From Armatimonadota bacterium (GTDB lineage: Bacteria; Armatimonadota; UBA5829; JAUSEB01), in NCBI GenBank assembly GCA_030649165.1, contig JAUSGG010000089.1:1-39075 (forward strand): a stretch of DNA of 39,075 nucleotides, written 5' to 3'. Shown one piece after another: positions 3,143 to 39,075 of this stretch. Every line of letters starts with the position of its first letter. The stretch's first letter is position 1. A model generated the notes under the pieces. That model was given only the letters and a program-made list of their open reading frames with translations. It was not told where the DNA came from and searched no databases. The position numbers and the translations under genes are program-made.

Positions 3143-3224
3143 ACTCGGGGTCTGTAGGTTTGTCAGGGGCTCAGGACTGGTCACTGTTCACCGTTCACCG
3201 TTCACTGGTCACTGACGGTCGTAG

Positions 3225-6156: not shown

Positions 6157-9100
6157 CTATAGCTCCGTATTGAGATGCTCCCACGGCGGCAGGCCATCGG
6201 GGCGCGTAGGCAAGGGGAACGGCTCGTATCGGAATACATTGCCCGTTATCGCGACCGCGGGGTTACCCTCGGCGTTGTCTTTCGTTCCGGGAACCAGCAG
6301 AAAGCTGGCCGGCCCTTGCGGCGTTGGCTTCTCCCCGAACGTCTCTTTCCTGAGCCGCTCTTCCTCAGCCGTCTTTTCCTCCACGAATACATTCGTCACG
6401 AGGTTCTCCTGTAACATCTCGTTGAATATCAGATTCCCAGTCACAGCGCAGCGCTCCGCCAACAGAATGCAGACCGTTGGCAGGGCGGACTTGCTGCGAA
6501 TCTTATTCGCGTTTACGATCACCGAACTCGCGGTAAAGGCGTCGGTATCCCATACGACCAATCCGGGAAAGGTCGCGCGGTCGCCGGTCGCGGCGCAGAT
6601 CACCTCATTATTCGAGAAATCGAGCGAGAGCGCGGAGTGAACGCCGGTCTTAACTATCGCTTGCAGTTCGATGTCCCCGATTTGATCGTCGATGGCCTGG
6701 ATACTCACTAAAGGCTCCACGTGCGGAATCGGTTTGCGCAGTTCAACGAGGTTCGCCACATCCCCGGTGGGTGGCTCCGTCGCTAGACGTTCAGACCGAA
6801 CGTTAAAGGTCAAGCCGTTGTTGATTACAGCCCGCACAAACGCCCCCCGTTTCAACACTTTTTCATCTGTTTCGGAGATTCGATTCGGAGCGGGAGGCCT
6901 TGCCGTCTTTACCAGCGCCGATCGTCTGAGATCATAATCGTCCGGCAACGGATAGCCTCTTGCCAGCAGGGCGGTGAATTGCAGGACAGGATCGCGCGCC
7001 ACGCCCGACATTACCTCATAGAGACGTGCCGCCGGCTCCGCAACGGTCCTTGGCGCCATGATTTCGGTAGCAGACTTGACGGAAGGCAAAGAGGCCAGAT
7101 CGAACAGACAGAATCCTCCGTAACAGTCTCTCACGGTGTTCGACTCGATCTTTATGGCGCCTGCTGTCGAGAAGATCAGAGCCGCGGCCGCGATCCTCTC
7201 GAAGCAATTGTCCCGGAACAGAGCGTTGTCCAGCTTCGAAAGGACCACACGACCTCCCGCCTCGCCGGCCGCCATTTGGCTGTTCGGTGTCATACCATAC
7301 CCCATCAAGAACCGAGAAGCAGTACGGACATCCTCAGTTGAGAGAAAGCGGTTTCTCTGCACGGTCAGATGATCGCACTCTCCGCTCGCAAGCACGCCGG
7401 CTCCCCAAACCATGCGCTTCTCGCCGGCCGGATAGGCAAACCGGCAGTCCTCGATAGTCAGGTTCGTGCAGTCGAACAGGCGAATCCCTATGCAGACAAG
7501 AAGGTCCTTCAGAACGGCGGCGGCGTTCCCTTCCAAATCCCCGCGCTCTCGGTTTGCCAGCTTGTCCGGCATTTCAACCAGTGGGGGCGCGAATTCGATT
7601 CCGCGCAGCGTTATTCGATCCGCTCCGTCGATGAGGATGAGTCCCTGCTGGAACTTCTCGAGCGCCTTCTCGTCAGCTCTGAGGACCACCCCCTCTCGGC
7701 AGGCTTTCAGAACCAGGTTGGGGTTCTTGCGACCGAGTTTCAACGTCTGGGGCAGGATATACGTTCCAGGCATGAAGCACACCGTCGCGTCTTTGAGTCT
7801 GCTGAGAAGCTTTTGCAGCCTGCCGGCGTCTTTCGGTGTCACAACGTGTGTGCAACAGCCGATCTGTTTCCTTTGGGTAAGCTCGACAAGATTGTCGAAC
7901 TGCTTCCGGCAGTCCGCGAGACGCGAACCGGTGTCGTCCTGCTTCCACTCGATGACCGCCAATGGACACACCCACCGGCGTGGTCCGTCGGGCGGCTGGG
8001 CCTCCTTGAGGTAACGCCCCGGATAGGCCTGTGTGGGCGTCGCGGGACGCAAAGCAACAGTCCAGTAATCGCCGACGTGACAAGTCCCCTCTACGCTCAC
8101 CAACAAGCCAGTGTCTCCGACCTTCTGCTTCTGGGCGGGCAAATCCAATATACCGTTCCAGACACGCAGGAAGACAGAAGGATCGCTGGGACCGCCAGTG
8201 GCCAGCGAGAACTGAATGGGAGTCTGCAATACGACAGTCTGTTTGTCCCTGTCGTAACCCTCGGCCAGTGTGGTGACATGGCCGGTCTCGGCGGCGATAT
8301 ACTGTCCGTTGCTCAACATCACGTCGGATGGGAGAACTTCGACCACCTGAACCGCGCCGGGTTCGTGCGCGGCGTCGACCGGAACAGAATGCAATCTGAG
8401 TGTCTTCTTGTCATTCTGAACATCCACGCGGTAGATGAAAGAAGCGTTGTCGTAACCCCAGAGAAGCTTGTCAGGGGCGGCGACCTGAAAGCGGATCATC
8501 CTGTTTTCCGCATCAAGAAATCCGTAGTGGGCGTCGGGCTGGCATTTGTCCGTGGACGTCTCCGTCTTCTCGAACTCAATGCTCAGTTTCGCCGACGGCG
8601 CCAACCGGCATGTCTTGTCATCGTACTCGAGGCCGGCCTTCCCCCACCAGGCTTTCACCTCCGCAAGAGCGTCACCGCAGGTGTCCGCTTTCGTTGGATA
8701 CCGTACAATGCGCTGAATTATGCGGAGACGGGCCGCGGTATCCGGCCCGCCGAGCGCCACGTCCCTCAGGGCTTCGTCCTCGACTGCGCTGACCTCCTGT
8801 TCCCGCAGTTCCAAGCAGATCAACTCGCGTCCCGTTTGCAGGGCCGGGTCCGGCGTCAGCCAATCGGGCTGCGCGCTGTAAGTGCAAGGCTTCGCCAGCG
8901 ATACGCGCACTCCTCCCACGTACATCGTGCCGGGACCAATCGTCAGATCGCGCGAACCATCGTCCACGGTACCGATGAGATAGCCGTTGTCAGGAGTTCC
9001 GACTGGCCCGACGAAATCGAGCGCGTCATCAGATATCTCCTGGCTTAGAATATCCTGGACTTCGTTTGCGTCGGCGGCGACGGTAACCCTGCCTTGCTGT

Positions 9101-16980: not shown

Positions 16981-18432
16981 TCACCGCCCCCTCGCAGTAA
17001 GACGGCGGACCAGAGCGAAGTAATGGGAATTGATGAACGAATCCGGTGTGTAGGTTCGCAACACCGCAACCGTGTAGAATCCCTCCGAGTACAAGTGTAC
17101 CTTCAACGGATTCCACCAGGAGGTTCCCCAATCGCGGGGATAAAGGTTCCGCATCTGAAGCTCGCCCTCGAACTGAACGCGCACCTCACCCCGTGCAGCC
17201 GCCTCTTCCGACACACCATGGCCCCCTGCAATCTCAGCCATCGTAACAGCAGGCCCGGTAGTAAACCCTCCGGTCGCAAACTCGACGGCTTTAGGTGCGA
17301 TGAGTTCCTTAACGCGCCCTGCATGGCGGGGGTCGCCGTATTCGGTAAGCAGTTGCCAGAACAGGCTCTCGCCAGGGGACAGACTCTCGCCCCTCGCTTG
17401 AGAGTCCGATATCAACTCAGCGATAGCTTGGCGATATACCTCGTGGACGAACTCATTGCAGTTGACAGTTCGAAGGTCGTCCGCAGTGGAGAACGGGTTG
17501 CCTGGGATTCTCAAGTACCGTCGTCCCTCGATGATGCTGACAGCTCGATCACGGATCTGAGAGGCACAAGGTCCCCGAAACCTTAGGACAGCGCCGCCGC
17601 GCGCATTGGCGGGATCAAAGAAAGACCTGGTGGTTACGGTCTCGTAACCATTCGCTTCCGTGTGGTGGACCGTGCCGCTGTCCAGTGCAATCCCTCCGTG
17701 GTTGTACTGCTCGCCAATGATGGTGACAAGCGGATTCTTGCCTGAAAAGGTACCTGCCCTGACGACTACATCGCCGGGCTCGATTTCCTGCTGTCCCGCC
17801 GTCAGGCCGGACGCATCTACCGTCTCTTGTGCGCCAACAGCTTGACAGGCCAGACCGATCCCGGTTCGCAGCATAATATCTATGGTTGCTAGATTGGAAG
17901 TGACCGAGCGACTGGCATGCGCCGCCTCTCTCTCCATTGGGAGCGACGACGGTGACGTACACGCGACAGCGCCGCTCGCACATTGCTGTAACGTATGCGC
18001 GATCTCGTGGGCAAGCAATCCCCTGCCCGCACTCGTACCCGGCGAGTACTGTCCTGCACCAAATGCCACATCCCTCCCCACCGTATAAGCCAGCGCCCCC
18101 ACCGCCCTTGCCGACTCCGCCGCCTTCGCATCCGTATGCACTCTCACATCGCCGAAATCGTGCGCGAACCGCTCCTCCATGAACCCGCGAATACCCGGCC
18201 CCAGCGGCTCGCCCGGCGAACGCAGAACCTCGTGCACGATCGGCGGTACGCCGCCGGGCGCGACTTGACTGGGGCGAAGCTGCTGTCGCTCCCTTTTTGG
18301 CATCCGCAAGAGAGCCTGATTGCCCGGCCCCTGCCCTGCCTCAACGACGCGCCGGCCAGGCGATCTTGCCAACTCCGCCTTTGCCGACTCTCGGGTCGTC
18401 TTGTTTTCAGTAGTCACGGTGCGTGTTTTCAC
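16981..18432 (-). CDS. DUF4157 (zincin-like HExxH) domain protein with ~320 aa uncharacterised C-terminal domain; eCIS cargo/effector candidate B
   Basis: FMEERFAHDFGDVRVHTDAKAAESARAVGALAYTVGRDVAFGAGQYSPGTSAGRGLLAHEIAHTLQQ is a canonical DUF4157 block. The C-terminal region, with NHGGIALDSGTVHHTEANG, is unrecognised. Start is GTG at 18432. Confidence 0.7.
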   Translation of the reverse strand: MKTRTVTTENKTTRESAKAELARSPGRRVVEAGQGPGNQALLRMPKRERQQLRPSQVAPGGVPPIVHEVLRSPGEPLGPGIRGFMEERFAHDFGDVRVHTDAKAAESARAVGALAYTVGRDVAFGAGQYSPGTSAGRGLLAHEIAHTLQQCASGAVACTSPSSLPMEREAAHASRSVTSNLATIDIMLRTGIGLACQAVGAQETVDASGLTAGQQEIEPGDVVVRAGTFSGKNPLVTIIGEQYNHGGIALDSGTVHHTEANGYETVTTRSFFDPANARGGAVLRFRGPCASQIRDRAVSIIEGRRYLRIPGNPFSTADDLRTVNCNEFVHEVYRQAIAELISDSQARGESLSPGESLFWQLLTEYGDPRHAGRVKELIAPKAVEFATGGFTTGPAVTMAEIAGGHGVSEEAAARGEVRVQFEGELQMRNLYPRDWGTSWWNPLKVHLYSEGFYTVAVLRTYTPDSFINSHYFALVRRLTARGR

Positions 18433-18443
18433 TCATTCAGCCT

Positions 18444-18725
18444 TCAGGCGGCCTGCGTCGGCCCACCGAACATCTTCTCGACCACAGCCGTCAAGATCGG
18501 GCCGGCATGGTCAATGATCTCGGCGGAGTAGATCCACCCGCCGCTGTCGTGGCCGCGGATCATGATCGCGCGGTTCTCGTAATCCTCCAGTCGGATTTCG
18601 GCGCTCTCCGGCGGGCGAGCCTCCTGCATCCCCATGCCGGTCAACCTCGCGCTGCCGCCGGCTCCTGCGGGCGACAGACGGTGGAATTCGCCGCCCTTCA
18701 CGATACCGAACATTTCCTCGTTCAT
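18444..18725 (-). CDS. Small hypothetical protein (93 aa), no TM segment; possible immunity/accessory protein
   Basis: ATG at 18725 with AAGGAGG 7 nt upstream (the tool-reported first M at 18728 is TTG). It lies downstream of the CHAP gene. Confidence 0.4.
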   Translation of the reverse strand: MNEEMFGIVKGGEFHRLSPAGAGGSARLTGMGMQEARPPESAEIRLEDYENRAIMIRGHDSGGWIYSAEIIDHAGPILTAVVEKMFGGPTQAA

Positions 18726-27443: not shown

Positions 27444-28336
27444 TACCCTTGCCTCAGTCCAAAGAGTGATGTAAATCCGCGCGCAAGCGCTCCGGCAGGC
27501 CGCGGTCTCGCAGGCTGCCGCGCCGGAGGCTTCGGTGTCGGCGCCTCTACGACCTGCACATCAATAGAACCGATGTGTACGGCCGCGGGCTGCTTTGCCG
27601 GCTCTTGCGCGGGCGCGGAATGCGAAGCCGGAGGCGCCGCAACGTTGTCGGACTGGCGCTCACGCGGCGCCGAAGAAGGAAGCAGTATCGGGTGACGGCG
27701 CGCCTGTGAAGGTGTCCCCCTCCTTCTCCTCGGCGTTTCGAGTCGGAGCGCCTCGGCAAGCTCCGCCGGTCGATCCGGTGGGAATACCTCTGGCTTGGGA
27801 GCTGCGCTGGAATTGACGGTCTCAGGCTGACTCAGGCTTTCCGCGCGGCTAACTTCCTTGTGTGAGGTCTCCGCCGGCTTCTTCCGAAGTCGGGCCGCGG
27901 ATGGTATTTCGCCGTCCAATGGAGACAATGGGGATTCCGAATTCGTGCTCGGCTCGCCCGCGAGCGACGCTCGCGTCCGCGGCGGCTTCGGCGACGGCGT
28001 CAGCTTCAGATCCTTCGGTAGCAGAGCGCCGGCGTCGCTGCCGAAGGATGCGCCAGATTGCCGATCCCTCGGTTGCATAGCGCCGGCGTCGCTGCCCAAA
28101 GACGCGCCAAATTGCCTATCCTTCGGTTGCACAGCGCCGGCGTCCCTGCCCAAGGACGCGCCAAATTGCCTATCCTTCGGTAGCAATGCGCCGGCGTCGC
28201 TGCCGACGGGCAGGCCGGATTCCTCGACCGGTGGTAGGGGGTCCTGTGTCCGCACGAACCGGCGCGGCGGCGTCAGTACCTGTAAACCAACGGGCTTCCG
28301 ACCCGCAATCCGGCCAAAGTATGATATCCGGGACAT
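27443..28336 (-). CDS. Pro/Ala/Ser-rich repeat protein with 4 tandem 18-aa repeats (DAGALLPKDRQFGASLGS); possible tape-measure-like or linker component
   Basis: The ORF is tightly coupled on both sides (TGATATG; TAATG). 54-bp tandem DNA repeats at 28013-28228. The composition is low-complexity. No family is recognised. Confidence 0.5.
   Translation of the reverse strand: MSRISYFGRIAGRKPVGLQVLTPPRRFVRTQDPLPPVEESGLPVGSDAGALLPKDRQFGASLGRDAGAVQPKDRQFGASLGSDAGAMQPRDRQSGASFGSDAGALLPKDLKLTPSPKPPRTRASLAGEPSTNSESPLSPLDGEIPSAARLRKKPAETSHKEVSRAESLSQPETVNSSAAPKPEVFPPDRPAELAEALRLETPRRRRGTPSQARRHPILLPSSAPRERQSDNVAAPPASHSAPAQEPAKQPAAVHIGSIDVQVVEAPTPKPPARQPARPRPAGALARGFTSLFGLRQG
28013..28228. repeat. 4 x 54-bp in-frame tandem repeat inside gene 27443-28336
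   Basis: Units start ccttcggtagcagagcgccggcgtcgctgccgaagg..., and each contains a palindromic core. Confidence 0.8.
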
Positions 28337-32272: not shown

Positions 32273-33253
32273 TTACCGCGGCAGATCGAATGAGAAACCG
32301 CCGGCGCGTGCCCCGCGGACGATTTCGGGAAGCGCATCGACTGTTTGAGAAACCCCAGCGTGCAGGAGTATGACGCTTCCGGGTTTGATTGCGAGCAAAA
32401 CGCGGCGCGTGATCTCGGACTCCCCGGGACGGGCAAAGTCATAAGGGTTCACCACGGTCTCCGGCAGCGTCTCGCCGTTCAGCCTGCGGCATCCCGATTT
32501 GCCAGGCGGACGATAAAGGATCGGCGGGTTTATACCCAACGCCTCAAGCGCCCGCGCGCACTTTGGCAGGTTCATCTCCGCGGATTGGTGGTCCCAGCAA
32601 TGAATTTGCAGTGAATGCCCTTCTCTTGACGCTCTTCGCACGATATCCGCGGAACCGCTGAGACGGTTGCAGACGCAGAAGAACGCCGCCTGAACGCCCT
32701 GAGCGCGAAGCGCATCGAGAAGAGCGTCGTCCAATGCACTATCCTTGCTCGGAAAGTCGTCAAAGGTGAGGTAGATCGGGCCGGCCGACGCCGCCGCGCC
32801 ATTGAGAGCCGCGCGGACGGCGCCGACAACATCCGCTGAACGGATTATTCCATGCCTGGCGAAAGTCACCCTGCCGGTGGTCTCAACGACGACCGTGTAC
32901 GGTATTCGGTCCACCTCAAGCTCGGCGGTGAGGGTCCTTCCGGCATCGAGGAGCACGATGCCGCCGATTTTCCCGCGGGCGACGTCGGCCCACCGGCCAT
33001 CGATGGAAACAGTGAGAAAATCGACCGGCAGGCCGGAAAGCGCTCGGTCGGCCCGCGCGATGCGTTTGCCGTGCTCTTTCCAGGTGTCGCACCAGAAGGC
33101 GCAGAAGGAGATCACCGTCACCCTGCCCGGGATCCAGCGGCGGGTTGGGCCATCGAGCGACGTGAGAGAGAAGGGCTTCAGGGTGTCGCCGGGTAAAGGC
33201 GCGCCGGCCGCGGGCGGGACCCCGGCGGCCAGCAGCCCGGCGGTTAAAACCAC
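32273..33253 (-). CDS. Secreted polysaccharide deacetylase (NodB-homology) with N-terminal redoxin-like domain; start uncertain (GTG at 33253)
   Basis: IYLTFDDFPSKDS...GHSLQIHCWDHQ is NodB-like. An upstream TlpA-like segment (VTVISFCAFWCDTWKEHG) lacks a CxxC. The tool ORF's N-terminal 109 codons run across the repeat element and are probably untranslated. Confidence 0.6.
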   Translation of the reverse strand: MVLTAGLLAAGVPPAAGAPLPGDTLKPFSLTSLDGPTRRWIPGRVTVISFCAFWCDTWKEHGKRIARADRALSGLPVDFLTVSIDGRWADVARGKIGGIVLLDAGRTLTAELEVDRIPYTVVVETTGRVTFARHGIIRSADVVGAVRAALNGAAASAGPIYLTFDDFPSKDSALDDALLDALRAQGVQAAFFCVCNRLSGSADIVRRASREGHSLQIHCWDHQSAEMNLPKCARALEALGINPPILYRPPGKSGCRRLNGETLPETVVNPYDFARPGESEITRRVLLAIKPGSVILLHAGVSQTVDALPEIVRGARAGGFSFDLPR

Positions 33254-33333
33254 GGCTGTGACTACGCAAAGTCGGCCTGCGCCGACTAGTCTCGCCCAGA
33301 CGCCCTCCAGGTAAGGTACCTGGAGGGATAGGG
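33241..33333. repeat. Repeated palindromic element, copy 1 (hairpin agtcggc-N4-gccgact plus 11-bp inverted repeat ccctccaggta-N3-tacctggaggg)
   Basis: Near-identical to 33677-33766 and partially to 38886-38933. Confidence 0.8.
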
Positions 33334-33380
33334 TACAAGGTACGTGGAGGGATAGGGTACAAGGCGCCTGGAGGGGTAGG
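33306..33380. repeat. Three tandem ~24-bp repeats (ggagggatagggtacaaggtacgt-like) extending from the palindrome
   Basis: Read directly: ggagggatagggtacaaggtacgt / ggagggatagggtacaaggcgcct / ggaggggtagggtacgtgag. Confidence 0.7.
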
Positions 33381-33676
33381 GTACGTGAGTTGGTGGTTGG
33401 TGAGCGTGTTAACATTTTGGTCATCCGAGGCGCGGTGGGCCGTTTTCTCCTGATTTTGCGTTTTTCCGCACGAAACTGCTTTGAAACAGTTCTATTTTCG
33501 CACGATTCAGCATGGTAATCGTACCTAAACCGCACCGAAACCCGTGTACAAAGGTGTGAAAACGCGCGAAACCGCCGCAAAACTGAGTGAAACTGGTTGA
33601 GAATTGAGAGGGCTGGTTGACCAGCCCAGACCGGTTAGCGGTTAGCGGCTGTCTCCTTCGGCAGCCCTTGGCCAGG

Positions 33677-33766
33677 CGGTTGAAACCACGGCTACGACTA
33701 CACAAAGTCGGCCTGCCGACTATTCTCTCCCAGACGCCCTCCAGGTAAGGTACCTGGAGGGATAGG
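33677..33766. repeat. Repeated palindromic element, copy 2 (intergenic)
   Basis: 90 nt, ~90 percent identical to copy 1 including both hairpins. Confidence 0.8.
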
Positions 33767-33880
33767 AAAAGGATCGCAAAGTCCGCGGTTGGTTCCACAA
33801 GTCCGTTCCCGCATCACGATAGGGCTCCTGGTTTGCTGACGACTGAAAGCTGATAGCTTAATCTTCCCCAGCGCATCAGG

Positions 33881-36800: not shown

Positions 36801-38251
36801 CGAAGCTGAATCGGGATGAGGGAGCCTAGCGGCGCGACGAGGACATCCGTACTGATCCCCAACCGGATTTCGGCCGAGTACGCGGGCGCGCCCGCAGACG
36901 CCTCCACCTGGCGGCGCGACGTGTCTGTCGTCGTGCACTTTATGCGATAAATCGAGTCGGGCGCAGCCTTGTCCGTCTTAATGGGAATGGAGACCTTTCC
37001 GTCCTTGTCGGTGTAGACTGTTCCCTCCGCGATGAACTGATCGGAACGGTACACGTCGGACTCGTCCATATTGCCGCTCCAGTCGGCATACCAATCTCCT
37101 GTCTCGTCGCGGCTTCCGTAGTAGAAGTTGTTTGCGCGTCTGACCTGGTAATGGACCTGCGCCTGCGGCAGCGGCGCGCCGAAGTAGTAGCTCGCCGCGA
37201 CGTTGAAGACGATCTCCTGGCCCGCAAGGTATCGTTTGGCGCCGGGACTAACGTCCACCTTGAACTCCGGCTTACGGTATTCCGCCACGTCAAAAGAGTG
37301 GTAGGCTTCCACTTCGCCCACCGCAACCACGATGCTGTAGCTCCCGAGAGATCCTTCCGACGCGAGCCGGACCTCGCCGGAGAGGGAGCCTATGGCGTTG
37401 GTCGTAAGCTTCTTATCGTAGAAAGCATTGTCTTTGGAGTCTCGCGCCTGCACGCTGCACGTCTTGTTGGCAAGGGGCACATAGCCCCTCCCCTTGGTAT
37501 GCCTGAGTATTGCCTTGAACATCACGGTCTGGCCGGGTCGGTAGATAGGACGGTCGGTCTGAAAGTGGACCACGAGTTGGCCGTCCGTGTTTGTGGCGCC
37601 GCAGGGGACCGCCGCAAGGTCTCTCCCGCGGGTGACGATAATCGTCTGGTTCTCTCGTGGAGGTGTTTGGAGTATGAACACACCGTCCGGACCGGTCTCA
37701 CCGCTCTTGACCTGCTTTCCGCTGTTCTCGTAAAGCGTCACTTCCGCGCCGCGTATCGGCCGGCCGGTCTTTGCGTCGGTAACCCAGGTGAGGACGCGCT
37801 TCTGAGAACGCTTTACCACGACGGACAGGTTGGTGACGTTGACCACGGCCCAGGCTTCCCTGTCGCCGCCTGAGGCGGTGAGAACGTAGATTCCCGGCGC
37901 CAGAGGCGGAAGGTTGGTTTGTTTGCCGCGGTACATGTCTTCCTGATAGCGACTGGGACGCTCCCCCTTGGCGATCATCGAAACACCCCACTGCTTCACG
38001 ACTTCACCGCCCGAAGGCTTCATGGGCTTCCCTCGCCCGATGAGCAATCGCACATCCCGGACTCGGCGCGCTGTGATATGCACAAGACCGACATTGCGCG
38101 TGTTCAGGTTGATCCTGATCTTTGGACCCGGCGCGACGTCGCGCGCGACCCAGATCGAAACTTCAGTCTTAGGCGCCTGCCGCGCCGCGAAAACCGCTAT
38201 CGGCGTTAAGAGCAGGACAAATGCAGTCAACCAGCGATTGCAGCTTTTCAT
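33881..38251 (-). CDS. Giant secreted alpha-2-macroglobulin-family-like protein (~1456 aa); start set to the signal-peptide Met
   Basis: Signal peptide MKSCNRWLTAFVLLLTPIAVFAA. Many beta-sandwich (MG-like) repeats. A segment PGNLTSWRGKALAITGDTKTGKAQTNV resembles the A2M family. No CxEQ thioester motif was seen. Confidence 0.5.
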   Translation of the reverse strand: MKSCNRWLTAFVLLLTPIAVFAARQAPKTEVSIWVARDVAPGPKIRINLNTRNVGLVHITARRVRDVRLLIGRGKPMKPSGGEVVKQWGVSMIAKGERPSRYQEDMYRGKQTNLPPLAPGIYVLTASGGDREAWAVVNVTNLSVVVKRSQKRVLTWVTDAKTGRPIRGAEVTLYENSGKQVKSGETGPDGVFILQTPPRENQTIIVTRGRDLAAVPCGATNTDGQLVVHFQTDRPIYRPGQTVMFKAILRHTKGRGYVPLANKTCSVQARDSKDNAFYDKKLTTNAIGSLSGEVRLASEGSLGSYSIVVAVGEVEAYHSFDVAEYRKPEFKVDVSPGAKRYLAGQEIVFNVAASYYFGAPLPQAQVHYQVRRANNFYYGSRDETGDWYADWSGNMDESDVYRSDQFIAEGTVYTDKDGKVSIPIKTDKAAPDSIYRIKCTTTDTSRRQVEASAGAPAYSAEIRLGISTDVLVAPLGSLIPIQLRAVDLDGKPAAAKVTVAVGKLVWDEKEHRYKREELTRTRVTIPASGKAAARVPAKAAGNLSILATALDRTGRKASAQLTVWTAGPSAKFEKEEQGPVLTLKPDRRSYEPGRTTGIWVNSNTPRPVLLTVSGLDIFEYLVLPANTKSFLWKVKTSVEMSPNAYAEAEQWSKSYRVSANALLPIPDRTRKLTVSVEPDKKAYRPGDTAVWTVRTKALNGKPIPAEASVSVVDESIYAIKPDNTRDPYAQFWGIRENGVATNSSAPEEMSGGAFQGAPETGRSALLPAFRSALPPGAKLAGVRQRFLDTAYWNANLMTDMDGTATVSFDVPGNLTSWRGKALAITGDTKTGKAQTNVQASRPVMLRLAVPRQMVQGDTLRLIGTINNRADRAHEFHVELAAEGLTIEGSPARKVNVPAKGEATVEWTIGAPTLPESGEASITGALFATDVPAGSVEEMSDALKVNLRIAPKGIERRILVGGALQNEKTVTLDLPEDRIEPASRVTITVRAGLKQVADDLAREVLDSGRYSTSAAADQLLAACVVGAANASEDVRESLALLSRYQQGSGAWGWWETDAWDPVTTARVLTALARARAARITVPDDLLARGISGADLLYGQTNLWEHKALLASAITLAEFAVSPSGIAEGVYIRRDRLLDEVHRRGADLSPYARMALAEAYAKASKMDWAKEAIQSVLKDAVDGPDTAYLPVGDKPGWSATTVEATARALTVLAATSQGDELQAKLAEWLARPDDYTWLSNDEQAEAAFALAAYLKKHPQPAQPGKPEIKVNGAAVEYEEESGKPVRASVPRSLLKSGANTISLTRTGGGSVFFSVEARVHRPAEQESSIGMRLLRRYESQNDAGVWQELAGSLKPSSPVRCTVLVWPDDKPDGIRVVEPIPAGFEFVDSDRNGAWAREEVRDAAVIHYMRSFGEPIYFRYYLRAESEGVVTALPASAEIIRRPAVSGNTATSTVQVKK

Positions 38252-38804
38252 CCTCTGAACCTTTCTGCCCTGAGGCGGTAGAGTTGACACGGGGATCCCT
38301 CAGAGATGCCCGCTTTCTTGTAAGCCCACTTGAGCCGGACCTTTGGGTCTTTTCCTTCCGTACGATGCCGGCTCGCCCGCCGGCCTTCAAAACCAAGCCG
38401 TCCGCGGGCGCAAGCGAGCTTACATCCCCAATTGGCTCCGTCCGTTCCACGATTGTGATTGTGACGTGGAAATCCTTGAGGTCATTGCGGGTGAGCGGGC
38501 GATAGCGCGGGTCGTGGGAGGCGGCGGCGCGAGCCGCAAGGACGACTTCCTCTTCGAGAGAGCGGCTTCGCACATCGAGCGAGCCCCGGCACCCCACAAC
38601 GCGGCCTTTTATCTCGATAGTGACGAACACCGGACGCGCCGGGGATTTGCTTCTGATTGCGGGTGGAGCCTTTGCTTCGACTTCAGCTTTGACGGCCTCG
38701 CGGGCAAGCGCCAGGAGCTTGTCCTGGTTGTATGTGCGAGACGCGCTCGCCGGCAAGGTGAGCGCAAGCGCGGCCAGAGTGAGCGCTGAGCGTGAAGATA
38801 TCAT
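38169..38804 (-). CDS. AMMECR1-domain protein; C-terminal ~60 aa atypical and overlapping the next gene start (possible frameshift)
   Basis: RPVFVTIEIKGRVVGCRGSL...AARAAASHDPRYRPLTRNDLKDFHVTITIV fits the AMMECR1 core. The tail after DGLVLKAGGRAGI does not. Confidence 0.55.
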   Translation of the reverse strand: MISSRSALTLAALALTLPASASRTYNQDKLLALAREAVKAEVEAKAPPAIRSKSPARPVFVTIEIKGRVVGCRGSLDVRSRSLEEEVVLAARAAASHDPRYRPLTRNDLKDFHVTITIVERTEPIGDVSSLAPADGLVLKAGGRAGIVRKEKTQRSGSSGLTRKRASLRDPRVNSTASGQKGSEDEKLQSLVDCICPALNADSGFRGAAGA

Positions 38805-38885
38805 ACAGGCCTCCGGTCCACGTTTCTCCGCGTTGATTAAGACGACGGGAAGCAGGCAAGCGTTCCATGCCGAGACGAGCCCCGG

Positions 38886-38933
38886 CGGTTGAAACCACGA
38901 CTACGACTACGCAAAGTCGGCCTGCGCCGACTA
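38886..38933. repeat. Repeated element, truncated copy 3 (first ~48 nt with the agtcggc...gccgact hairpin)
   Basis: cggttgaaaccacgactacgactacgcaaagtcggcctgcgccgactag, ~80 nt upstream of the AMMECR1 start. Confidence 0.75.
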
Positions 38934-39075
38934 GCCCGCATTATTCACGAATACCGAGTTGTACCGCCCCTCGATACGGTCCCAGAGGACCTACTCGGGG
39001 ACACGGACTTGTTGTTTTCGTGCTGGAAAAGTATAACTCCGCGTTCCCGAGTAGCCGCTCCGGCGGCGTATCGAG

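Follow-up and report, generated by a model that had tools for sequence, protein, structure and literature searches.

A nest of short dispersed repeats, probably selfish, splits a conserved operon junction in an Armatimonadota bacterium

What is a 627-nt block of repeats doing between two genes that practically abut in related bacteria? The window that we analysed, a complete 39,075-bp contig of an Armatimonadota metagenome-assembled genome at NCBI, carries on its minus strand, in this order, genes for AMMECR1 (38804-38169), an alpha-2-macroglobulin (A2M; 38290-33881) and a thioredoxin-like/polysaccharide deacetylase fusion (33253-32273), with hairpin-forming repeats in the A2M-deacetylase junction and upstream of AMMECR1. 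A preliminary description took these repeats for a single element of ~50-90 nt, resembling either a repetitive extragenic palindrome (REP) or miniature inverted-repeat transposable element (MITE), or else a shared 5' leader, operator or attenuator. We consider it quite probable that several small selfish repeats, from two or more unrelated families, are nested here, and that they are no control element for the neighbouring genes; what was taken for one element combines two repeat families that are independent of each other.

The window contains three direct copies of a 54-nt sequence, here called the core, which a repeat search placed on the plus strand at 33236-33289, 33672-33725 and 38881-38934 with 76-93% identity, in agreement with the number of hairpin copies first described; a 21-mer from the core matches three times in the window and zero times in 100 dinucleotide-preserving shuffles. 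A covariance model (R1), built from seven copies after BLAST searches, reports them on the minus strand as copy 1 (33228-33296, 80.7 bits; hairpin 1 at 33270-33287, hairpin 2 at 33240-33253), copy 2 (33664-33730, 76.3 bits; hairpins at 33706-33721 and 33676-33689) and copy 3 (38873-38941, 78.5 bits; hairpins at 38915-38932 and 38885-38898). The 7-bp hairpin said to be common to all copies, AGTCGGC-CTGC-GCCGACT, is intact at 33270-33287 and 38915-38932; copy 2 has a deletion of 2 nt, and its remaining AGTCGG-CCTG-CCGACT (33706-33721) pairs over 6 bp. Copies 1 and 2 are accompanied by a perfect 25-nt palindrome, CCCTCCAGGTA-AGG-TACCTGGAGGG, at 33303-33327 and 33737-33761, in which we recognise the 11-bp inverted repeat described earlier (11+3+11) and for which dinucleotide-preserving shuffles give zero matches expected by chance. 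Copy 3, 93% identical to copy 1, is without a palindrome. A tandem array had been attributed to both long copies; the three units on copy 1 are there (33313-33384; period 24 nt, 3.0 copies, 89% matches), and this is the one array found in all. Each 24-nt unit includes a right-arm half-site (TACCTGGAGGG, TACGTGGAGGG, CGCCTGGAGGG), unit one being the right arm of palindrome copy 1 itself. Copies 1 and 2 have another 52-nt stretch in common and their likeness reaches further upstream (33388-33401 with 33780-33793), defining a locally duplicated segment of ~122 nt at copy 2 and ~166 nt at copy 1, spaced 434-436 nt apart. A Logan contig from the same organism (L002) ends at palindrome copy 2, 30 nt into a 38-nt stretch; we attribute this break to the identity of that stretch between the two copies.

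The palindrome belongs to a dispersed family. CCCTCCAGGTA-NNN-TACCTGGAGGG has at least 120 exact matches in JGI metagenome contigs, where we estimate that far fewer than one would be expected by chance for 22 specified bases, and there are at least 116 non-redundant sites with unrelated flanks in ~20 samples. The conserved unit spans ~33 nt, (C/T)(C/G)AT-[25 nt]-AT(G/C)(G/A), with AT on both sides in 60/116 sites among the matches listed. The palindrome-bearing contigs have a GC content of 0.607, compared with 0.605 for the window, and all named close homologs of a dehydrogenase on L020, the one contig tested in this way, are from Armatimonadota; the many dispersed copies with unrelated flanks are thus a finding at the level of the lineage. 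Short arrays of truncated palindromes beside a full one recur on L026, L046, L061, L070, L100 and L119, with units of 12, 20, 21 and 24 nt in L026, L070, L061, L046 and L100, the same architecture as the 3 x 24-nt array of the window. Among the matches listed, ~84% of copies lie outside strongly coding open reading frames (ORFs), and only 3 of the 66 intergenic copies stand between divergent genes, a scarcity also typical of REPs. Targeted searches of the open-access literature yielded no report of REPs in Armatimonadota/Armatimonadetes, and the open-access papers containing either 11-mer arm are, judging by their titles, unrelated studies. Two further loci illustrate how these sequences are rearranged. 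L020:3860 and L067:735 have a common left flank up to the palindrome and different right flanks, indicating palindrome-palindrome recombination or metagenome mis-assembly, and L072:250-760 is a mosaic of all repeat types, in which a ~200-nt tandem repeat with three full and three variant palindromes (CCCTCCAGGAATCTTTCCTGGAGG) is joined by a GGCTACGGCGTGGTTG segment resembling part of the core, a GAATAATGC(A)GG box and GGAGAGC heptamers.

A candidate enzyme for this family is encoded on a 2.5-kb contig, L126, whose ORF 1803-2348 (181 residues) scores 105 bits, above a cut-off of 80, with the NCBIfam equivalog NF047646 (REP-associated tyrosine transposase, RAYT); it matches Pfam Y1_Tnp, and its sole PDB match is 4ER8, E. 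coli TnpA-REP. A truncated inverted palindrome lies 17 nt ahead of the ATG of this gene, a full palindrome 7 nt past its stop codon and a variant at the contig end. The downstream palindrome has ~50 nt in common with the window module, including the flank GGAGGGATAGG(G)T(A/G)CAAGG(A)TACGT, which is the array unit of the window, and its immediate flanks (CG on one side, ATAGG on the other) are those of palindrome copy 1. On L109, palindromes are likewise found upstream of a decayed RAYT fragment. In practice REPs and REPINs are recognised by the closeness of the repeat to a RAYT gene, and tandem REP arrangements have been described (PMC3116915). By analogy, we infer that the palindrome is the REP of an Armatimonadota REP/RAYT system and is mobilised by RAYT. 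At the listed sites no GTAG tetranucleotide stands beside the palindrome, the flank consensus being Y-S-A-T. A conserved GTAG is found next to the REP hairpin in enterobacteria, and the flanking tetranucleotide may differ between RAYT clades.

The palindrome has also entered genes. Among the matches listed, 16 of 98 testable copies lie in-frame within long ORFs that have coding signal separately on either side; the hosts include SMC, an isocitrate/isopropylmalate-type dehydrogenase (IDH), EPSP synthase (AroA), UvrC, TruB, an M16 peptidase and, with two copies, a DegT-type aminotransferase. The frames are used 13:3:0, a distribution that even use would hardly produce (our chi-square ~17, 2 degrees of freedom): 13 copies are read as IPPG(I/M/L)(I/L)PGG, three as DPSRY(D/H)TWRD and zero as SLQV.YLEG. 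Since SLQV.YLEG is the sole frame open through the palindromes of the window, and the one never found in genes, the window palindromes are presumably non-coding. The 9-residue insert of the dehydrogenase is missing from 119/119 listed homologs (79-90% identity), and at the DNA level the filled site on L020 (CTC-AT-[25 nt]-AT-GGCC) is 27 nt longer than the empty site on L131 (CTC-AA-GGCC). The alignments of TruB and EPSP synthase with solved structures run unbroken across the insert, which appears as an alignment gap; this continuity excludes assembly chimeras, and the nine residues are apparently tolerated as a loop.

The core is a second dispersed family, separate from the palindrome. The preliminary description had proposed a covariance model of the hairpins, and ours recovers 16 cores, three in the window and 13 on palindrome-bearing contigs (L018 twice, L020/L106, L030, L034, L041, L065 twice, L074, L100 twice and L127), with the ~55-60-nt consensus YYCCCAGTC-NN-C-GNAG-G-NN-GACTTYGYG, 5-6 nt, GTTGCC-KCGRW-TTCA-WYCGM-(C/A)GG. 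All 175 of 175 cells of the two stems are paired, as opposed to 81% in shuffles and 25-51% with slid partners, and 6/12 pairs have changed on both sides, over 31 cells; this covariation indicates that the pairing of both hairpins is under selection. None of the 13 further copies has an adjoining palindrome, so the palindrome-linker-core arrangement of the window is a local composite that was presumably duplicated. Copy 3 consists of the core alone. Of 13 independent core loci, nine precede a gene by 0-150 nt in the sense orientation and three lie antisense or at the 3' end of a gene; on L065 the core is inside the N-terminal coding region. The genes downstream are unrelated to one another (mtnA, an M16 peptidase, a glycosyltransferase-like membrane protein and a DUF6259 protein). 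On L065 the element encodes ..GGGRLRVPVAAVSTAGLLA.. (..AVSTAGLLA..), which matches the in-frame reading ..GAGRLCVVTAVVLTAGLLA.. of the window, and the signal-peptide-like N-terminus of the deacetylase is therefore element-encoded and not native. The REP-like half of the preliminary description is thus right for the palindrome, a dispersed family that flanks a RAYT gene, and plausible for the core.

No core is present beside the RAYT genes of L126 and L109, and no Rfam family corresponds to the core. Several known classes were rejected by inspection: an integron attC site (no R'/R'' consensus), the template/variable repeats of a diversity-generating retroelement (no reverse transcriptase, no adenine-specific differences), a tRNA-derived element (no T-arm geometry) and the left and right ends of an IS200/IS605 insertion sequence (the two hairpins are dissimilar); a sub-threshold match to Rfam htlv_FSE was dismissed as trivial hairpin similarity. 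Some core loci are unusual in themselves. L065:10250-10599 holds a 149-nt tandem duplication of the 5' end of a membrane-protein gene, complete with Shine-Dalgarno sequence, ATG and in-frame core copy, and the upstream duplicate closes in a stop codon overlapping the real ATG. At L018:4321-4445 two cores lie head-to-head with their 5' ends overlapping by 10 nt, a REPIN-like inverted doublet; one overlaps the final ~25 codons of a gene in antisense, the other is 65 nt upstream of mtnA, and a perfect extended -10 (TGTATAAT) lies between. The core-bearing contig L074 also carries a cobalamin riboswitch (8149-8341; RF00174, 88.9 bits), unrelated to the repeats.

How the junction looked before the repeats can be read from relatives. 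AMMECR1, A2M and the deacetylase are adjacent in 5/5 loci recovered as DNA around five homologs (L003, L004-7, L008, L009, L010), even though the nearest deacetylase homologs are just 50-58% identical, and the A2M-deacetylase junction measures -4 to +4 nt there compared with 627 nt in the window. Both palindrome and core are absent from these five loci in covariance-model and sequence searches. This tight, repeat-free junction means that the 627-nt block is lineage-specific added DNA, inserted into a conserved operon, and not a conserved regulatory region. In the rest of the expanded junction (33762-33880, minus strand), compared with the junctions of the relatives, an ATG CGC at 33876-33871 lies exactly 4 nt past the A2M stop codon (33883-33881), where the deacetylases of the relatives begin (MR...); its frame closes after 20 codons, and judged from the sequence it may be the stranded original deacetylase start. 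The annotated deacetylase (MDO8587001.1, 326 aa) starts instead, as the preliminary description had it, in core copy 1: its GTG (33253-33251) lies within hairpin 2, and the core supplies this codon and the first ~8 codons (MVLTAGLL). The long ORF 32273-33580 that runs through the repeats is open by chance only. Copy 3 ends (38881) 76 nt upstream of the AMMECR1 ATG (38804), close to the ~80 nt reported, and copies 1 and 3 do stand at gene 5' ends; copy 2 precedes no gene. Neither the 627-nt block nor the core is bordered by terminal inverted repeats or target duplications, and the junction as a whole had no BLASTN match among plasmids and phages. Rfam at gathering thresholds found nothing in the window or in 10 loci, and promoter and terminator scans gave nothing above chance, a sigma-70 consensus scan of the spacer being likewise empty. 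One of the relatives, L010, which is without either repeat family, encodes a Y1_Tnp protein (IS200/RAYT-like; 18068-18574) ~8 kb from its operon, 26% identical to the RAYT of L126.

Other features surround these repeats. The end of a third repeat family, at 38935-39075 on the minus strand, reaches the contig end; it consists of an imperfect hairpin (arms 38970-39019 and 39026-39075) followed by a 14-nt box, GTGAATAATGCGGG (38948-38935), abutting core copy 3, and this box recurs after long hairpins on six other contigs (L038 twice, L042/L073, L046, L061 twice, L072), making two or three dispersed families in all. Between the duplicated composites lies a low-GC spacer of 287 nt (33385-33671, minus strand), with GTTT(C/T/A) phased every 9-11 nt at 33476-33597 (~117 nt), CGGTTAG x 2.4 at 33632-33648, two hairpins directly after core copy 2 and GAAAC ~16-fold denser than in the whole window. 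Elements on L034, L127 and L131 are bordered by comparable 7-11-nt repeats, and the spacer reads as repeat-prone intergenic filler, though it may still hold a promoter. Intergenic short-period repeats occur elsewhere in the window (ACTGTTC x 5.6, a 20-mer x 2 and heptamers; 3176-3214, 408-448, 2914-2929 and 33632-33648), and on other contigs heptamer arrays are common beside elements (TCGTCAG x 6 after the L131 dehydrogenase is one case), recalling the heptamers of heterocystous cyanobacteria.

As for the neighbouring genes, AMMECR1 (38169-38804) is frameshifted at ~38358-38360: the alignment with relatives follows one frame as far as ..GGRAGIV and a second one from EGKDPKVRLKW.. to a normal C-terminus, which abuts the A2M start. 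The 211-aa product is called identically on the independent Logan contig L002, indicating either a real pseudogene or an error common to shared reads. Directly downstream of the deacetylase, at 6157-32176 on the minus strand, is a complete-looking extracellular contractile injection system (eCIS) of ~26 kb with genes for sheath, gp19-type tube, baseplate J (two), GPD hub, two eCIS-core proteins, Pvc16, an AAA ATPase and a CHAP/PG-binding protein; the operons of the relatives have other genes downstream. Within one of its ORFs (27443-28336) a 54-nt unit is repeated 3.6 times in-frame (28009-28204), giving 18-residue repeats (GSDAGALLPKDRQFGASL...), and a single copy of this unit, with an imperfect palindrome CCTTCGG..CCGAAGG, stands at 23814-23860 in the intergenic gap 23680-24100; it is a further palindromic repeat found both in and outside a gene.

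Several observations weigh against a reading as selfish repeats. The sole DNA-level empty site of the palindrome reads AA, not AT, leaving a 2-nt target duplication unproven, and the core has neither a clean empty site nor a transposase tied to it; a candidate empty site downstream of the L020 dehydrogenase was set aside, since a different gene order in L131 and L132 precludes a clean comparison. JGI metagenomes and viral contigs have no exact match to the core 21-mer, and GTDB representatives have one chance match with dissimilar flanks; the six-frame peptides encoded by the elements found nothing among 5.8 billion proteins. The 39 kb of the window contain no RAYT gene and just two palindromes and three cores, clustered in 5.7 kb. 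L002 passes unbroken through core copy 3, and this speaks against a large number of near-identical copies in that sample. The absence of the 21-mer, the 5.7-kb clustering and the unbroken L002 suggest that copy number in the source genome may be low. Finally, the nine sense-upstream loci out of 13 leave scope for an RNA-level role, although this excess is not significant (our binomial estimate ~0.13).

What, then, of other explanations? If the core, with or without the palindrome, were a cis-acting 5' leader, operator or attenuator for AMMECR1-A2M, the deacetylase and perhaps the injection system, one could understand why all three window copies are in sense to the genes and copies 1 and 3 at gene 5' ends, why the deacetylase GTG falls within hairpin 2 and why 9/13 core loci are sense-upstream; the selected pairing and the operator-like shape of a perfect 11+3+11 palindrome would fit as well. 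We nevertheless find it quite improbable. Both modules are absent from five orthologous operons, which have no intergenic space to hold them, and elsewhere the families occur beside unrelated genes, in both orientations and in reading frames: the distance to the start codon varies from overlap to ~150 nt, three cores are antisense or 3', and the palindrome stands at more than 100 unrelated sites, including some within ORFs. In the window no gene follows copy 2, regulator genes are lacking, and neither a promoter or terminator consensus nor an Rfam family was found. The shared leader, operator or attenuator of the preliminary description is accordingly not upheld. A different RNA-level proposal sees in the core a structured RNA that has been domesticated, for example as a hairpin pair stabilising the 5' or 3' end or as a processing site; it would have been spread by transposition and then kept for its effect on mRNA fate. 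Compensatory changes that keep both hairpins, the conservation of single-stranded ACTTYGYG, GTTGCC and the loop TTCA, and the mild sense-orientation bias all speak for it, and REPs in other bacteria have been reported to affect mRNA stability. Cellular roles have also been proposed for REPs (PMC3116915). We judge it unlikely: recognition of a folded strand by a transposase, as in REP/RAYT and IS200/IS605 (PMC3116915), predicts equal hairpin conservation, and antisense and in-ORF cores are a poor fit to a single RNA role.

Two further proposals concern the origin of the core. Its hairpin 1 with flanks scores 29.7 bits in copies 1 and 3 with Rfam CRISPR-DR28, sharing loop and flanking bases with a compensated stem, and the core might on this ground be a solitary CRISPR-derived repeat; yet the gathering score is 35, the match covers 24 of the ~60 nt conserved, the 39 kb contain neither an array of regular spacing nor a cas gene, and family members are single with unrelated flanks, making this hardly credible. 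Nor do we give much weight to a plain local segmental duplication of the deacetylase 5' region, in which the repeated sequence would be native signal-peptide coding sequence without mobility. The sequence in-frame upstream of the GTG, GRLCVVTAVVLTAGLLAAGVPPAAGA, does have the length and shape of the signal peptides of homologs, and copies 1 and 2 do resemble a local duplication of ~122-166 nt. However, the same element and peptide occur at an unrelated locus (L065, ..GGGRLRVPVAAVSTAGLLA..) and 13 further copies on other contigs, copy 1 has no in-frame start codon upstream, and compensatory stem changes point to selection on pairing, not on peptide; we hold this duplication to be very improbable.

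If the feature is instead a nest of selfish repeats, as we favour, it could have been assembled in a few steps. The palindrome would spread through genomes by copying, most likely in the form of a single-stranded hairpin processed by RAYT, an HUH/Y1 enzyme, by analogy with the REP/RAYT and IS200/IS605 systems, in which the transposase acts on a folded single strand (PMC3116915). Each insertion would add 27 nt (25 plus AT each side), which keeps the reading frame, and truncated half-copies would expand beside the palindrome, probably by slippage, to give arrays such as the 3 x 24-nt one. In the window, one bare core may have arrived upstream of AMMECR1, beside the third-family repeat, and a palindrome-core composite may have entered the tight A2M-deacetylase junction, where its presumed local duplication around a short-period-repeat spacer would have taken the junction from ~4 to 627 nt. 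The deacetylase gene would have been struck at its 5' end by the insertion or insertions and would then have taken up the GTG and first ~8 codons from core copy 1. Any effect on expression, too, is something that we infer. The full picture, an Armatimonadota RAYT-linked 25-nt REP that colonises essential genes (SMC, UvrC, TruB, AroA and IDH) as a tolerated 9-residue Pro/Gly loop, together with a 60-nt two-hairpin element that donates start codons and hydrophobic N-termini, we advance tentatively, giving it slightly less than an even chance.

Were it true, the palindrome would perhaps be the smallest protein-invading mobile element that we know of, and a bridge between REPs and the in-gene palindromes of the Rickettsia type. 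A RAYT tied to a perfect, extremely short and often intragenic REP would be a tractable system for studying target choice by HUH/Y1 enzymes and the tolerance of proteins for selfish insertions. For annotation, the regulatory-looking 627-nt region is repeat debris that splits a conserved operon junction. As the deacetylase start and the N-terminal part of its signal peptide are element-derived, neither secretion nor co-transcription with A2M is to be assumed; the N-terminal sequence MVLTAGLLAAGVPPAAGA is a candidate export signal. Such repeats also break metagenome assemblies, with contigs ending at them and at least one possible mis-join, and are open to misreading as riboswitches, operators or CRISPR repeats.

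The closest known systems are the REP/RAYT pairs of E. coli, Pseudomonas and Nostoc (PMC3116915; 4ER8), which the palindrome resembles in being short, dispersed in many copies, mostly intergenic, sometimes in tandem, and placed beside RAYT genes (L126, L109). Usual REPs are imperfect, whereas this family is a perfect 11+3+11 palindrome with a YSAT flank and no GTAG. REPs are extragenic by definition; by contrast, 16/98 copies of this family, among the matches listed, are in-frame in housekeeping genes. The core does not share the features of REP/RAYT: it has two different hairpins in place of one palindrome, and no adjacent RAYT.

MITEs are roughly 50 bp and upwards in length, and a Y1/HUH transposase typically makes no target duplication. 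The palindrome is non-autonomous like a MITE and its arms can be read as inverted-repeat ends, and AT on both flanks (60/116 among the matches listed) would fit a 2-bp target duplication; it differs in its length of 25 nt, compared with ~150-235 bp for published MITE examples (PMC10969869), in that no parent insertion sequence was found and in its association with a Y1/HUH enzyme, and the core is without terminal inverted repeats. To Rfam CRISPR-DR28 (RF01356) the core bears a resemblance only, hairpin 1 having the same loop and flanking bases at a sub-threshold score, without array or cas gene. The cyanobacterial small dispersed repeats (SDR), which Elhai et al. in 2008 are said to have put at 21-27 nt, are similar in size (~25 nt), in forming hairpins and in having short-period tandem repeats nearby (heptamers, 8-11-mers). 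They come from another phylum, differ in sequence and are not known to us to be linked to a RAYT or to colonise genes in-frame, both of which are seen for the window family. Both SDR and heptamer tandem repeats in cyanobacteria are mentioned together with REPs (PMC3116915).

In its use of genes the palindrome is most like the Rickettsia palindromic elements (RPEs), selfish palindromic DNA of ~150 bp found in-frame in unrelated metabolic and housekeeping genes (PMC10969869); it too is in-frame in housekeeping genes, translated to IPPG[I/M/L][I/L]PGG. It is not a member of the RPEs, adding only 27 nt (9 residues), about one-fifth of their size, in a host of different phylum and lifestyle, and being found on either side of a RAYT gene, whereas no transposase is mentioned for RPEs (PMC10969869). 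The core is an undescribed structured repeat that is not in Rfam, and the palindrome represents a REP/RAYT family that is new and that invades genes in-frame in the manner of RPEs.

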